DNA from: a virus
DNA: 25,161 nt
Strand: one strand, 5' to 3'
Virus genome (UHGV): UHGV-1407879
Part shown: piece after piece, positions 19,573-24,965 of the stretch
Position numbering within the stretch: the first letter of the stretch is position 1
Layout: each line of letters begins with the position of its first letter
Program-made: the position numbers and the translations under genes
Notes under the pieces: model-generated
Told to the model about the DNA's origin: nothing
The model's input: the letters and a program-made list of their open reading frames with translations, nothing else
The model's database searches: none

Positions 19573-19608
19573 ACGTGCATATTTAAATATTGCACGTTAC
19601 AACGTGCA
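19573..19608. promoter_or_regulatory. Operator-like triple half-site ACGTGCA / TGCACGT / ACGTGCA in divergent promoter region
   Basis: ACGTGCA (19573-19579), 11-bp AT spacer TATTTAAATAT, TGCACGT (19591-19597), TACA, ACGTGCA (19602-19608); a TTGCAA -35-like hexamer lies at 19564-19569. Confidence 0.5.
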
Positions 19609-19643
19609 TGTGTATGATTGACTTATCAATCACAACACGAGAT

Positions 19644-20657
19644 ATGCTCATGAAAAATGATGATGTTAGTGGGAAGGCCAAAGGCGGTAAGGCACGCGCG
19701 GCAAAAATGACAGCAGAGCAAAGAAAAGAATCCTCAAGAAAGGCTGTTGCCGCAAAAAAAGAAAAAGCTTTATTGCCCGTATCTGCGAATGAGGGAAAGT
19801 TAAAGATCGGTGATGCGGAATTAGATGTCGCGGTTCTCGAAAATGGACGGCGTATCATATCACAAGCTTCTGTTTTTAAAGCATTTGGCCGACCACAAAG
19901 AGGGGGTAGAGCACCTCAAGAAGAGGGTGTGATCAATATGCCCGCTTTTATGGATGCTGCAAACCTTAAAAAATATATAAATCAAGATGTTATGGATGTG
20001 ATCAATAAGGTCAAATACAAGACGATTACTGGCTCCGTCCAGGAAGGTTATGACGCATCCATAATACCTCTTGTCTGCGATGTTTATTTAAAGGCAAGAG
20101 AGGCAGGCGCTATCACCAGGCCAAACCAGTTAGAGACAGCCAAGAAAGCTGAAATTCTGGTGCGCTCATTAGCTAAAGTCGGAATAATAGCGCTTGTTGA
20201 TGAAGCGACGGGGTACCAGCGAGATAGAGAAAAAGATGCACTCGCCAAAATACTCGAGGCCTTTGTCGCAAAGGAAATTCAACCTTATATTACAACATTT
20301 CCTGCTGATTATTATGAAGAGCTTTTCAGGTTAAGGGGCTTAGAATCCCCGCCGGAAAATCCCCGCTTCCGGCCTCAGTATTTTGGCGTTTTGACAAATG
20401 ATATCGTCTACAAGAGATTGGCACCAAACATCCTTGAGGAGCTTAAAAAGCAGAACGTAAAGGCCTCAAAAGGTACAAAGTTGTTTCAGGGGCTGACGCC
20501 AAATATTGGATATCAAAAATTAAGAGAGCATCTGTCATCAACCGTTACGATTATGAAGCTATCTAACGATTATTCAGATTTTATTGCAAAAATGAATCGC
20601 CTGCATCCAAGGTTTGAGGATGTGAAAACAGACGAACTGGATGATTCAGACAAGTAA
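19644..20657 (+). CDS. Hypothetical protein with lysine-rich basic N-terminus (338 aa from ATG 19644; ORF open from 19590)
   Basis: Long ORF with own promoter/operator upstream and terminator downstream. The track start at 19590 is a TTG inside the operator; ATGs at 19608, 19614, 19644 and 19650 are alternative starts. Basic low-complexity N-terminal tail (SGKAKGGKARAAKMTAEQRKESSRKAVAAKKEK) then globular domain. Confidence 0.6.
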   Translation: MLMKNDDVSGKAKGGKARAAKMTAEQRKESSRKAVAAKKEKALLPVSANEGKLKIGDAELDVAVLENGRRIISQASVFKAFGRPQRGGRAPQEEGVINMPAFMDAANLKKYINQDVMDVINKVKYKTITGSVQEGYDASIIPLVCDVYLKAREAGAITRPNQLETAKKAEILVRSLAKVGIIALVDEATGYQRDREKDALAKILEAFVAKEIQPYITTFPADYYEELFRLRGLESPPENPRFRPQYFGVLTNDIVYKRLAPNILEELKKQNVKASKGTKLFQGLTPNIGYQKLREHLSSTVTIMKLSNDYSDFIAKMNRLHPRFEDVKTDELDDSDK

Positions 20658-20661
20658 CAGT

Positions 20662-20686
20662 AACCCACCTTCAGGTGGGTTTTTTG
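20662..20686. terminator. Bidirectional rho-independent terminator between convergent genes
   Basis: ACCCACC-TTCA-GGTGGGT hairpin followed by TTTTT on + strand; A-run on the other side; overlaps the last codons of mnt. Confidence 0.65.
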
Positions 20687-20922
20687 TACAAATCCTTCAG
20701 CGTATCAAACACCATCTTCTTAACAAGCTCTGACTGCTCATCAGCGAGTCGTTCTGCATCGTCGCGATAGCCTGCAATCGGTGATGGTTTTGATAGCGCA
20801 TCCTGAACGATTTGTAATAACTCTGAGTTCATTGACCTTCCGTTAGCCTCTGCTCTTAATTTCAATTTTTCTCTTACTTCCAAAGGCATACGGAAGTTAA
20901 AGTGCGGATCGTCTCTAGCCAT
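20671..20922 (-). CDS. mnt: Mnt repressor (ribbon-helix-helix)
   Basis: 83 aa, near-identical to P22 Mnt from memory (ARDDPHFNFRMP.EVREKLK.RAEANGRSMNSELLQIVQDALSKPSP...). Confidence 0.9.
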   Translation of the reverse strand: MARDDPHFNFRMPLEVREKLKLRAEANGRSMNSELLQIVQDALSKPSPIAGYRDDAERLADEQSELVKKMVFDTLKDLYKKPT

Positions 20923-20945: not shown

Positions 20946-21209
20946 CTAACTTTCGTCTTTATTGTTGCTATACATGCATTTCAACTTCTCAACATCATGT
21001 TCAAGATCTATCAATCGTGATGCTATAGTTGCAAGGTCTAGTGCTTGAATGTGTTTATTTTTTTCGGTCCATGCTTCAAGTGCCGCGACCATCTCAGCAT
21101 TTAATGAACGAGAATTAGCCTCAGCCAGTTCAATAAGACGTTCCTTTATCTCTACAGGAAGCCTCAGATTCACTTGAGGGTTTTTGTACTTACGATCAGA
21201 CATTGGCAC
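20946..21209 (-). CDS. Second Mnt/Arc-family ribbon-helix-helix regulator (87 aa)
   Basis: N-terminal RHH signature (NLRLPVEIKERLIELAEANSRSLNAEMVAAL) plus C-terminal helical extension as in Mnt; lies between mnt and the operator region. Confidence 0.7.
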   Translation of the reverse strand: MPMSDRKYKNPQVNLRLPVEIKERLIELAEANSRSLNAEMVAALEAWTEKNKHIQALDLATIASRLIDLEHDVEKLKCMYSNNKDES

Positions 21210-21249
21210 ATCCTGAATAATTTTTTACCACAGGATATGTAGGTATCTA

Positions 21250-21278
21250 TTGACTATCAATGCGTACCTAAATACTAT
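21250..21278 (+). promoter_or_regulatory. Pant-like promoter with overlapping operator repeats
   Basis: -35 TTGACT (21250-21255), 17-bp spacer, -10 TACTAT (21273-21278); palindrome ATTGA-CTA-TCAAT (21249-21261); direct repeats ATGCGTACC at 21260-21268 and 21281-21289. Confidence 0.55.
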
Positions 21279-21308
21279 GTATGCGTACCACATACAACGG
21301 AGGATGCA

Positions 21309-21449
21309 ATGAAGGTAAAAACACTGCGTATGCCAGAGAAGTTAGAAAAAATCCTTGAAGAGAAAGCAAAGGAAGAGTGTCGCTCATTTAGTGCAGAAGT
21401 AATTAAACGGGTGATGGACAGCCTGAAGAGAGAGGGGATAACGGTATGA
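21309..21449 (+). CDS. arc: Arc-like ribbon-helix-helix repressor (46 aa)
   Basis: Not in the ORF track (under 60 aa). GGAGG 6 nt upstream of ATG 21309; translation MKVKTLRMPEKLEKILEEKAKEECRSFSAEVIKRVMDSLKREGITV aligns with the P22 Arc strand-helix-helix pattern (FNLRWPREVLDLVRKVAEENGRSVNSEIYQRVMESFKKEG). Confidence 0.7.
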   Translation: MKVKTLRMPEKLEKILEEKAKEECRSFSAEVIKRVMDSLKREGITV

Positions 21450-21649
21450 GTAAAGAATGTTGTTTCTGCGGCATTAGCGAATCAGACGCTGATCAAACAT
21501 ACATTTACTCTAAAGAAACAGGTCGGATGCTGTGTAGTGACTGCGTGTTGGACATCATAAGATACAAGCATCTTGGATGTTCTGCCAGCATTAGCAATAT
21601 AGGTGAAGTATATGAAGGGAAAGATATAACTGATAGAGCAGAAAGTTGA
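21446..21649 (+). CDS. Small Cys-rich protein (67 aa), putative zinc-ribbon
   Basis: ATGA overlap with the arc stop (translational coupling); cysteine pattern CCFC...CSDC...C. Confidence 0.5.
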   Translation: MSKECCFCGISESDADQTYIYSKETGRMLCSDCVLDIIRYKHLGCSASISNIGEVYEGKDITDRAES

Positions 21650-21712
21650 AGCCCCAACTGCGGTAACAGTCAGGGCTTCGGTATCGTAAAACCACGCATA
21701 GGAATTAACGAC

Positions 21713-22636
21713 ATGAAAAGTATAGCAACAGCAGTATCTACTATCAATGTACCATTCCACGGCGCAGAGCTTTATGTTGTTAATCACAACGGTGAGCCGT
21801 ACACCCCAATGAAACCTATCGTTGAGGGAATGGGTATGGATTGGGCTTCACAGTTTACAAAGTTAAAACAAAGATTTGCTAAAGGTATTGTGGAAATCGC
21901 AATACCTTCAGTTGGCGGTGTGCAGAACATGATTTGCCTTGCTTTACGTAAACTGAATGGCTGGTTGCAAACCATCAGCCCTAACAAAGTCCGCCCTGAA
22001 ATCCGCGACAATGTAATCCAGTATCAAGAAGAGTGTGACGATGTGCTATACGAGTACTGGACTAAAGGCCATGTAGTTAACCCACGCAAAGCTAAAAAGG
22101 CGTTGCCGGGTAAAATCACCACTGAACAGCAGGAAGCCATTAAACAACTCGTCATGAGTCGCGGTCAGTCTCTGCCAAAAGAAAAACAGGCTAAGGCGAT
22201 GATCACCATGTGGTCGTCACTAAAATCCCATTTTGGATGTTCGTACAAAGAAATCAGTGAGGAGCAGTTTACCGAAGCACTATCACTTGCAGCTCGAGTT
22301 CCACTTGAAGGTGAGTTCATTGGCAAACAAGAGAAGAAAACCAACGAGCTTTCTGCAAAAGAAGCAAACAGCCTTGTATGGTTATGGGATTATGCCAACC
22401 GCTCACAGGCATTATTCCGCGAACTGTATCCGGCATTAAAACAAATTCAATCGAACTATTCCGGCAGATGTCATGACTGCGGTTATGAGTTCTCCCGTAT
22501 TATCGATATAGCGAGAGACGTTTTAATCAATCACACACGAGATGTTGATATCAATGAGCCAGACGGACCAACGAATCTTTCCGCATGGATGAGACTTAAG
22601 AATAAAGAATTACCTCCTTCAGTACATAACTACTGA
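21713..22636 (+). CDS. ant: Antirepressor Ant-like protein
   Basis: 307 aa in the position of P22 ant (downstream of arc, upstream of tailspike); assignment by synteny and size, not by recalled sequence. Confidence 0.55.
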   Translation: MKSIATAVSTINVPFHGAELYVVNHNGEPYTPMKPIVEGMGMDWASQFTKLKQRFAKGIVEIAIPSVGGVQNMICLALRKLNGWLQTISPNKVRPEIRDNVIQYQEECDDVLYEYWTKGHVVNPRKAKKALPGKITTEQQEAIKQLVMSRGQSLPKEKQAKAMITMWSSLKSHFGCSYKEISEEQFTEALSLAARVPLEGEFIGKQEKKTNELSAKEANSLVWLWDYANRSQALFRELYPALKQIQSNYSGRCHDCGYEFSRIIDIARDVLINHTRDVDINEPDGPTNLSAWMRLKNKELPPSVHNY

Positions 22637-22814: not shown

Positions 22815-24965
22815 ATGACAGACATTACAGCCAATGTGATCGTATCGATGCCTTCGCAACTCTTCACTATGGCGCGTTCTTTTAAAGCCGTAGCCAATGG
22901 CAAAATTTATATCGGTAAAATTGACACTGATCCTGTAAATACAGAAAACCAGATTCAGGTCTATGTGGAGAATGAAGACGGTTCTCACGTTCCTGTTTCG
23001 CAACCAATAATCATTAACGCTGCTGGATATCCGGTATATAACGGACAGATTGCCAAATTCGTTACCGTGCAAGGCCATTCTATGGCTGTTTATGATGCGT
23101 ATGGTGCGCAGCAGTTCTATTTTCCTAATGTGCTGAAGTATGACCCTGATCAACTACGGCAGCAATTAGAAGACCCGGATGGAGCTAAAAAATATCCTGA
23201 ATTGCAGATATCTCGGTGGAGGGACGATTGTGATGTAAGAGGGTGGGGGGCAAAAGGCGATGGTATAACAGATGATACATCTGCATTGATCTTGGCTGCA
23301 GAATATGCACGAGAATCATCCAAAACATTACGAGCGGAAGGTAATTTTATTATTACGGAGACATTAAATCTTCGTAATGTCAGCCTCGAAATGACCAATG
23401 CTGTTTTTACCATATCCCACTCAGGAATAGGGGTATTGCTTGGCGGGAATGCATCAAACCCTAACAACCCAAGACAAAACTTCGGAACGATTATCAGAAA
23501 TTCTGGTATTTCATCTGAAACGACACCGGATATTCGTATTATTGGGGCAAAAGGGCAGCATATAAACATTGAGCGTTGCGACTACTTACAGTTATATGCA
23601 AATTATAATGCTTCGGTGGCATCGACGGATTATTCAATAGCATACTCAACCTTTAACCTGAAAAAGGTCGATACAATTCATTTTCTTGGAGTTGAGAACG
23701 GATGGATAAATGAAAACTATTTTTATCTGAATCGTACGAATAATATCATTTTCGCTGATAATCCATATCATCATAACCACAATAAGTTTTATGGTGGAAC
23801 TATGGAGGGGGCAGGTAAAATTGATATTCAAAGAGGTGATAACAATTACTTCTACGGGTTTCGTTTTGAACGATATCCATCATCCCCAACTAACCAACAG
23901 TTGATAATTAACTTTGGTGAATATACGTGGAATAACTCAATTGAGGCTTCATGGTTAAGTTCTCCTTACTATACAAATGAACCATACAATCCATCACCTT
24001 ACACTTATGTAGAGGTAACTGATAATGGCAAGGGGAATGCAGTATTTCATGTTCAGGAAAATATATCCGATGAAGTAACATTGTTTTCTTTAAATGCTAA
24101 CACCCCATTTATATCCAGTGCCAACAATGGAGAAGTTGGTGCATTAGCATATCAAACAGATGTAGATGGTTTATATAATATCCGTCACCTAGTTTCTTCT
24201 AAGTTTGCTTTTATGCGGAATTTTGGGTTGTTATGGGAATCTGGAGATGTACCAGTAAGAAATGGTGATATGTTTACATTCTCAGCAGATACGGCATCGT
24301 TTCGCATTTACCTGTATGCATTAGATGGAGATGGGAATGTCATAACTTCACAAACAGAAGCAATAACTTCTTCTATGCAATGGGATTCATCTAACCATAG
24401 ATATGCTACTGTTGCTAACATTTCTTCCATTAAGATCAGGATTAATAATGAAGGGGTTCCAGTTAGTGCAATTCGTTTAGCTGTGTATTCTGGTGGTAAT
24501 GTAGCGAATACTGCATTTTCATGGCTATGCTTAACTGGTAGATATTACAAAAATAGCACATCCTTGCCAAGGAAAAGCAAAGATAACTTCACCTTAAAAC
24601 AAGGAAAAGCAATTACTTATTATAGTGATACTGATATTAGTATGGCTAACATTGGTTCAGGAATTACCTGTTATAAAACCGATTTATCTGAAATCAAAAT
24701 TAATCTTGTAAGGGGCAGGTATGTAGTGAAATCAATTTCAGGCAGTGAAATATATGTATACCAAGGAACAGTCACTTATTACCCTCCATTCAGTGATGTC
24801 AAATTGGTATATACGGATGGGGTTGAAAATAAATTATTAGATGTGCAAAACATCTCTTCAGGAAAGATTACTCTTGCAGATACAGTACCATCAGCTATAT
24901 CTGCAGGTGATTTTGTAGATGTTATTGTTACGAAGACGAAGTCTATTTTATCCAGTGCGCCGTAA
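22815..24965 (+). CDS. Tailspike protein: P22 gp9-like head-binding N-domain fused to a divergent receptor-binding domain
   Basis: 716 aa; N-terminal ~115 aa closely matches P22 tailspike from memory ([11 protein letters not shown]...[21 protein letters not shown]...VLKYDPDQ). The remainder is unrelated, visibly AT-rich, with a pectate-lyase-fold-like motif ([14 protein letters not shown]). Confidence 0.9.

Follow-up and report, generated by a model that had tools for sequence, protein, structure and literature searches.

The 105-bp gap between two divergent ribbon-helix-helix (RHH) genes of the viral genome UHGV-1407879 is probably a bidirectional promoter/operator switch, which would control a self-contained variant of the immI region of phage P22, and we propose below how it could work. 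The window analyzed here is the whole 25,161-nt stretch of this genome, in which the open reading frame (ORF) map and the sequence place the gap at positions 21204-21308, between the leftward gene for an Mnt-like protein, here called RHH87, and the rightward gene for an Arc-like protein. Because the two RHH genes diverge from the gap, the rightward gene belongs to an arc-like/ant operon with sar, no P22 operator is present and the core of the gap is conserved above its flanks, the gap very likely, on sequence grounds, does the work of the P22 Pant/Pmnt/Oarc/Omnt region by means of other operators.

The window comes from a P22-like prophage. In this region it is 96.8-97.9% identical to phage CUS-3, an identity that spans mnt, RHH87, the gap, the arc-like gene, a further small gene (ORF67) and the start of ant, and it is 99.9% identical to a prophage of E. 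coli STEC346. The gap itself is unannotated in E. coli RefSeq genomes and in CUS-3 is merely called 'bsq2 boundary sequence'. ORFs, Pfam matches and synteny with P22 and CUS-3 give the gene order mnt-like, gap, arc-like, sar, ant, tailspike, and the order in P22 is alike. Several of the features that mark immI are found here: divergent Mnt-like and Arc-like RHH genes, an arc gene that is first in the ant operon, a location between the ejection-protein genes and the tailspike gene, and a sar gene overlapping the start of ant. Homology to P22 breaks off just beyond the ribosome-binding site of mnt, after a few bases (~20942), and is back at ~21642, at the hairpin upstream of ant, so that sar falls within the block that is again homologous to P22. 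Where P22 has its Pmnt/Oarc/Pant/Omnt region and arc, this genome thus has a cassette of ~700 bp that comprises RHH87, the gap, the arc-like gene and ORF67.

For comparison we used 80 IMG/VR loci collected with RHH87 as the query and 80 collected with the Arc-like protein, and added genomic loci from Morganella, Shewanella, Erwinia and Xenorhabdus; combined, these gave 56 unique versions of a 61-bp core located at 21236-21296. This core is 82-98% identical among relatives, as against 59-76% for the RHH87 gene and 53-65% for the arc-like gene at the nucleotide level, and it persists from E. coli to Morganella and Shewanella. Of 5426 complete E. coli genomes, 145 (~2.7%) carry it without annotation. 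It is also found in only two isolated phages, CUS-3 and SEN22, and in almost all of the 80 RHH87-seeded loci, the exceptions being those numbered L013 and L038. Nearly all of the 80 Arc-like-seeded loci pair the Arc-like protein with an RHH87-type protein bearing the motif Y[KR][NH]PQVNLR[LM]P. A P22-type mnt gene follows RHH87 in about 11/80 loci, and ~85% of the loci keep the same boxes (described below) without a P22-type mnt.

Only two promoter-like sites are found in the gap, and they are mirror images about base 21255. The -35 hexamers of the rightward P_R (TTGACT) and the leftward P_L (TTGATA) stand back to back and overlap by one base, 21255, and transcription is predicted to start near 21285 from P_R and near 21225 from P_L. 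Both are candidate sigma-70 promoters, with hexamers spaced within the usual 16-18 bp and -10 elements whose A2 and T6 are conserved among relatives. The rightward -35 is TTGACT in 54 of the 56 unique cores, while the rightward -10 is TACTAT in 39 and TAATAT in nine of them. On the leftward side the -10 appears as ten different hexamers, and despite this variety the pattern TAnnnT is kept in 55/56 cores, which is the signature expected of a working -10 element. A P22-style leftward promoter superimposed on P_R was looked for by reading the minus strand by eye and was rejected, since the -35 on offer was poor (CCGTTG, or TTGTAT wrongly spaced) and lay in a stretch that is not conserved; TTGATA-17-TATCCT was preferred. 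Natural variants of the rightward -10 also exist. Two E. coli-type cores (L042 and L048) have TGCTAT in place of TACTAT, and prophages of Erwinia tracheiphila (L092 and L093, reverse complement of 1400-1515) lack exactly one 21-bp unit, the rightward -10 included, a loss consistent with recombination between direct repeats.

The direct repeat ATGCGTACC occurs at 21260-21268, inside the P_R spacer, and at 21281-21289, just downstream of the P_R -10, the two copies being 21 bp apart from start to start and the only ones in 25 kb (0.12 expected). Chance levels were set with 2000 dinucleotide shuffles of the 105-bp gap, and an exact direct repeat of at least 9 nt arises in 2.3% of these. The pattern TRSGTAYC matches at 21240, 21261 and 21282, that is, in steps of exactly 21 bp, and gives the three boxes that we call S1, S2 and S3; since 21 bp is two helical turns, the boxes should lie on one face of the DNA. 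Among the unique cores the CGTAC of S2 is nearly fixed (C, T and A invariant, G in 53/56 and the other C in 51/56), the GTA of S1 is kept in at least 42/56 at each position, and S1 and S3 follow TRSRTAYC.

Two dyads of operator size overlap the promoters and the boxes. Dyad A has 18-nt arms (21236-21253 and 21257-21274) that are complementary at 14/18 positions (78%), a level equalled in 0.15% of shuffles. It contains a 5-3-5 palindrome, ATTGA (21249-21253), cta and TCAAT (21257-21261), which has the same centre at 21255; further out in the dyad, TAGGTA and TACCTA fall within the spacers of the two promoters. Because TTGACT and TTGATA stand back to back and share 21255, this palindrome is largely explained by the two -35 hexamers and is not necessarily an operator in its own right. 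The arms of dyad B match at 7/8 positions here and at 8/8, as a perfect 8-3-8, in natural variants that have G at 21290, and its outer arms TGTAT/ATACA are conserved. We infer an operator role for the boxes and dyads, and assign proteins to them in the same conditional sense below.

These results bear on an earlier note on this DNA, which had described, within 21210-21308, a near-consensus rightward promoter, TTGACT-17-TACTAT, and two direct repeats 21 bp apart around its -10. The promoter is present, at 21250-21278, with 'near-consensus' slightly generous for 9/12 matches, and the repeats are indeed found at 21260 and 21281. The 5-3-5 palindrome that the note laid over the -35 is likewise present at 21249-21261, although an operator is not needed to account for it. 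The leftward mirror promoter, the third box at 21240-21247, the palindrome of dyad B and the orphan status of the distal P22-type mnt had all been missed.

Both regulators of the module match the Arc domain PF03869, an N-terminal beta-strand followed by two helices, above its gathering score and give PDB profile matches to Arc and Mnt. A further 'Arc family' match, PDB entry 9pio, comes from a ClpXP substrate study and was discarded as irrelevant. RHH87 is 33% identical to Mnt over 76 aa, in an alignment that reaches residue 83, and belongs to the same PHROG as Mnt. Its AlphaFold2 (AF2) model has the two RHH helices and a 27-residue C-terminal helix (57-83), and a fold search returned only the RHH fold, with matches of the model to 1par and 1baz whose E-values are weak, the domain being very small. 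The N-terminal motif given above is invariant in RHH87 homologues while the C-terminus drifts or is replaced, and the recognition strand closely resembles the one in P22 Arc, with Gln, Asn and Arg facing the DNA in both. The Arc-like protein is 38% identical to P22 Arc over 39 aa, has an N-terminal arm of 2 residues and reads V-x-T-x-R where RHH87 reads Q-x-N-x-R; among relatives, Arc-like N-termini of three types are found over an unchanged core. The arc-like gene is unannotated in CUS-3, a phage described as apparently without arc (Villafane et al. 2008, PMC2629481).

The second Mnt-like protein of the window, encoded downstream of RHH87, is of the P22 type and has a DNA-reading N-terminus identical to that of P22 Mnt. 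A search of the 25-kb window that allowed up to 3 mismatches did not find its P22 operator, Omnt (AGGTCCACGGTGGACCT), nor does the half-site GTGGACC occur there, and no Oarc-type TAGA-N5-TCTA (TAGANNNNNTCTA) is found in the window, the gap holding a single TCTA. Because P22 Omnt and Oarc sequences are absent from the window, and because all loci but a few rearranged or unscored ones pair the core with RHH87 and only about 11/80 with a P22-type mnt, RHH87 is the predicted cognate Mnt analogue of the control region and the P22-type Mnt a predicted orphan. The earlier note had correctly held that the operator sequences differ from those of P22, whereas its description of the Mnt-like protein as 'extra' fails for RHH87, which we take to be the cognate partner; it is the P22-type Mnt that is present in a minority of loci and has no operator here. 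In SEN22 the RHH87 homologue (NC_028696.2, 15621-15878) is annotated 'partition protein ATPase', and PHROG 795, which holds P22 Mnt, is labelled likewise; an RHH repressor appears to have been misannotated and the error passed on.

Table 1. Coordinates of the control region, its sequence elements and the surrounding genes in the UHGV-1407879 window.
Feature	Position	Strand	Basis or remarks
P22-type mnt, 83 aa, downstream of RHH87 and co-oriented	20671..20922	-	93% identical to P22 Mnt
RHH87, 85-aa Mnt-like RHH protein	20946..21203	-	Shine-Dalgarno AGGA 21214..21211; Pfam Arc 3.3e-10
Intergenic control region, RHH87 / arc-like gene	21204..21308		ORF map, sequence
Inverted repeat CACATCCTG / CAGGATATG	21207..21239 (arms 21207-21215 / 21231-21239)		P_L -10 box pairs with RHH87 Shine-Dalgarno
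Candidate leftward promoter P_L (Pmnt analogue)	21232..21260	-	-35 TTGATA 21260..21255, 17-nt spacer, -10 TATCCT 21237..21232; 9/12 consensus
Dyad A TATGTAGGTATCTATTGA-cta-TCAATGCGTACCTAAATA	21236..21274		Centre 21255; both -35 elements, both spacers, S1 and S2
Box S1 TAGGTATC	21240..21247	+	Within P_L spacer; TRSGTAYC match
Candidate rightward promoter P_R (Pant analogue)	21250..21278	+	-35 TTGACT 21250-21255, 17-nt spacer, -10 TACTAT 21273-21278; 9/12 consensus
Box S2 TGCGTACC	21261..21268	+	Within P_R spacer; core of first ATGCGTACC
Dyad B TGTATGCG-TAC-CACATACA	21278..21296		Centre 21287; S3 central; over P_R -10/+1
Box S3 TGCGTACC	21282..21289	+	Over predicted P_R start; core of second ATGCGTACC
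Arc-like 46-aa RHH protein, first gene of rightward operon	21309..21449	+	Shine-Dalgarno GGAGGA 21299-21304; Pfam Arc 2.9e-9
ORF67, Cys-rich 67-aa protein (CCFC ... CSDC)	21446..21649	+	Between arc-like gene and ant; phrog_7150
sar antisense RNA gene, just upstream of ant	21644..21711	-	Rfam RF00262, 85.7 bits, E 5e-17
ant, antirepressor, regulated output of module	21713..22636	+	Pfam P22_AR_N 3e-44, P22_AR_C 9e-29

We propose that P_L would transcribe RHH87 and then the orphan P22-type mnt, and that P_R would transcribe the arc-like gene, ORF67 and ant, with the three boxes serving as RHH subsites read by the module's own RHH repressors. In a lysogen, RHH87 would act as a Mnt-like oligomer joined by its C-terminal helix, and by occupying S2 and S3, including dyad B, it would clamp the -10/+1 region of P_R and keep ant silent. 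At higher occupancy it would also reach S1 and damp its own promoter, P_L, giving autoregulation. After infection, the Arc-like protein made from P_R would bind dyad A across both -35/spacer regions and lower the activity of P_L and P_R alike, in the manner of Arc in P22. No action on the gap is expected of the P22-type Mnt. The bridging by RHH87 of boxes that lie 21 bp apart is a speculative part of this scheme, while its architecture is supported by the module of locus L013, which has the same layout.

Several results weigh against this proposal. The 21-bp spacing of the presumed dimer sites is twice that of Arc and Mnt tetramers, and the Pfam Mnt tetramerisation domain PF11423 matches the P22-type Mnt (7e-19) and not RHH87. 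RHH87 has the reading residues of Arc and yet there are no Arc-type TAGA boxes, so the P22 recognition rules are not transferable to it. The orientation of S1 relative to S2 is a tie (5.5 matches of 9 as a direct copy against 5.9 as a mirror copy), and dyad B taken alone is statistically unremarkable, being reached in 25% of shuffles. Both promoters match the consensus at just 9/12 positions, and promoter-like matches are no more numerous than chance (3 against 3.5 expected in 1.3 kb), which is why support for the promoters was sought in their position and conservation. No recombinant separating RHH87 from the Arc-like protein was found among the 80 + 80 loci, and the comparative data therefore cannot assign boxes to proteins. 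A search of the literature found no transcription-start, reporter or binding work on the CUS-3-type module.

Other explanations of the boxes were weighed on the same data. Both RHH proteins may read the same TRSRTAYC boxes, so that switching would depend on oligomeric state and affinity and distinct operators of the Omnt and Oarc kinds would not exist; RHH87, having a C-terminal helix, would span the 21 bp from box to box, and the short Arc-like protein would bind as dimers. We think this somewhat unlikely, but still a serious alternative, because the regulators of the L013 module share one recognition strand: its Mnt-like and Arc-like proteins are nearly alike there (ISPLGIRIP and IAPLGIRIP) and face a single family of repeated boxes, and the same is true of the partners in a Xenorhabdus module (PLGVRIP and PLGLRIEP). 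Here, too, just one box family is evident, in three in-phase copies, and the three Arc-like N-terminal types occur without any change in the core. Against a shared box stand the differing recognition strands of the two proteins in this window and the presence of two distinct operator-sized dyads, A and B. We also count against it the finding, reportedly made by Knight and Sauer in 1989, that differences in N-terminal residues give P22 Arc and Mnt their distinct specificities. If instead the RHH proteins acted elsewhere or on other elements, the palindrome and the repeats would have no operator role and could be by-products of promoter geometry and of an old 21-bp duplication (21243-63 and 21264-84). 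The two -35 hexamers do account for the 5-3-5 palindrome, both 21-bp units share an ACTAT promoter-like core, and the Erwinia deletion is consistent with recombination between the repeats in nature. However, spacer positions that a promoter leaves unconstrained are near-invariant in the 56 cores (S2 CGTAC in at least 51/56, S1 GTA in at least 42/56), a conservation that extends from E. coli to Shewanella, whereas identity in the flanking genes falls to 53-76%. The DNA-reading N-terminus of RHH87 is as invariant as the core with which it travels, and no other candidate site lies between the divergent genes, all of which makes a by-product origin improbable.

A role at the level of RNA was judged more improbable still. 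Dyad B would then not be protein-binding DNA but would form, in arc-ant transcripts or in late read-through RNA, a 5' hairpin or an attenuator, and the inverted repeat at 21207-39 would form a hairpin hiding the RHH87 ribosome-binding site. A fold of -13.1 kcal/mol (z -3.5) is predicted for the leftward RNA 21240-21200, in which the Shine-Dalgarno sequence is buried, similar hairpins with other sequences occur in several relatives, and dyad B is detected as a terminator-like stem on the minus strand. The rightward RNA 21270-21330, on the other hand, folds no better than shuffles (z 0.21), and the relatives have no consensus structure: relatives from E. coli and Salmonella have a strong 21207-39 hairpin, in other relatives it is weak or absent, and several lineages lack it. 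The predicted P_R start also lies inside dyad B and the predicted P_L start inside the leftward hairpin, so neither stem would be complete in its own transcript. Least probable of all is that the boxes are read by another regulator, whether the P22-type Mnt, a host factor such as LexA or the primary phage repressor. A P22-type mnt does lie in the same leftward operon, and LexA control is reported for the antirepressors of Gifsy-type prophages (cf. PMC3121763). Yet no LexA box was found in or near the gap, the window has no Omnt or half-site, and the boxes are kept in the large majority of related loci that have no P22-type mnt.

Read as an immI-type switch operated by its own RHH repressors, the module can be set beside known systems. 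The immI region of P22 (Sauer et al. 1983, record X01916) occupies the same slot between the ejection-protein genes and the tailspike gene, and it likewise has an arc-type gene first in the ant operon and sar. The likeness includes the start of the rightward -35 (TATTGAC), a 17-nt spacer, a TACTAT motif in the -10 region and a pair of operator-sized dyads, one at the -35/spacer and one at +1, whose centres are separated by 32 bp here and by 29 bp in P22. The promoters of P22, however, share the same 34 bp on opposite strands, and in its annotation (302-307 / 325-330 against 330-335 / 307-312) the -10 of one lies over the -35 of the other; this is not found here, where the promoters point apart and overlap at their -35 elements only. 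P22 has one 21-bp and one 17-bp operator, whereas the window has three in-phase boxes at 21-bp spacing and neither Oarc nor Omnt. The Mnt analogue here has Arc-like reading residues, the Arc analogue is just 46 aa long, and an extra Cys-rich ORF stands between arc and ant. The analogy with the overlapping Omnt/Oarc arrangement of P22 that the earlier note drew thus holds for the divergent RHH genes and the arc-like/ant/sar context, and does not hold for the promoters, which are back to back and not superimposed.

Small RHH dimers that bind short direct or inverted repeats around promoter elements are familiar from omega of pSM19035, CopG, MetJ and ParG. Their repeats are contiguous 7-8-bp or roughly 10-bp units, in contrast to boxes 21 bp apart, and the likeness is one drawn from the established literature. 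Closer in layout are two further types of module, represented by L013 (IMG/VR UViG_2541047931_000005) and by X. taiwanensis (AP028978). As here, their Mnt-like and Arc-like genes diverge, two copies of a box stand 21 bp apart around the rightward -10 with an additional copy upstream, and older mnt genes are stacked downstream. They differ in that their boxes are CTACACYGTG and TAGCTA, their regulators share a recognition strand, and RHH87 is an orphan in them. In L013 (1136-1240) the box CTACACYGTG occurs three times, with spacings of 21 and 36 bp, and two copies flank the rightward -10 (TTGACT-16-TAGTAT).

The CUS-3 'ant moron' (CP000711; PMC2629481) is essentially the same module as that of the window. 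In the CUS-3 annotation both RHH genes are called mnt, and the gap, the arc-like gene and ORF67 are only 'boundary sequence bsq2'; PMC2629481 gives no description of the arc-like gene or of how the operators are arranged. The two differ in the tailspike, which in CUS-3 is an endosialidase. The window encodes a 716-aa tailspike (22815-24965, plus strand) with a P22-type head-binding N-terminus and a receptor-binding part unlike the CUS-3 endosialidase, which implies a host surface target other than that of CUS-3.

Within the rightward operon, the ATG of ORF67 overlaps the arc-like stop codon (ATGA). ORF67 is found in 16/80 related loci and has no Pfam match, and its DNA is present at about 97% identity, unannotated, in many O157:H7 genomes. 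At the far end of the leftward operon, a GC-rich hairpin (AACCCACCTTCAGGTGGGTT, 20662-20681) with a T-run on the plus strand separates mnt from a convergent P63C-domain gene (19590-20657); it resembles a terminator for that rightward gene and possibly for the leftward operon as well.

Mnt-like genes are stacked in several of these loci, and in each stack only the gene on the arc side has its own operators. The window has RHH87 followed by the P22-type mnt (20671-20922, minus strand). Locus L013 (1202-2036) has three Mnt-like genes in a row, of the ISPLGIRIP, RHH87 and P22 types, and in the Xenorhabdus locus L087 (1272-1761) RHH87 itself is the distal orphan. The Shine-Dalgarno sequence and an intact ORF of the older gene are kept at each junction. 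The slot downstream of RHH87 (loci L007-L086, about 1730-2500), in the same orientation, holds hypervariable cargo, which includes lipoproteins, a ClpP-like protease, GmrSD, unknown proteins and four types of second RHH protein with the N-termini MARDDPHFNFRMP, RDIAPYSVRMP, NIAPFGLRMP and EEPQINIRVS.

We suggest, as a doubtful possibility, that the intact P22-type mnt is no fossil and is instead cargo expressed from P_L, silencing ant in trans in phages of P22-type immunity that superinfect the cell or already reside in it. If this were so, the lysogen would be shielded from induction by a foreign antirepressor. Stacked Mnt repressors of different specificities would then amount to cross-immunity, an old mnt being kept whenever a new mnt-operator-arc cassette takes the place of the previous control region.

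The immI region of P22, with Arc and Mnt, is a textbook system for DNA recognition by RHH proteins and for the logic of overlapping promoters. The module described here is not a new kind of system; it is a second, widespread version of the immI switch and a natural second solution to the same regulatory problem, in which both the predicted operators and the promoter geometry are different. In it, a Mnt-like protein that has the DNA-reading residues of Arc faces DNA without Arc boxes, and a defined 61-bp target and two small proteins are available for direct tests. A point in the literature is also resolved, in that phages of the CUS-3 type, said to lack arc (PMC2629481), carry an arc-like gene. 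Because the module is common, being present in ~2.7% of complete E. coli genomes, including K1 and uropathogenic E. coli (UPEC) lineages with CUS-3-like prophages, it bears on how prophages are silenced and induced in these bacteria.

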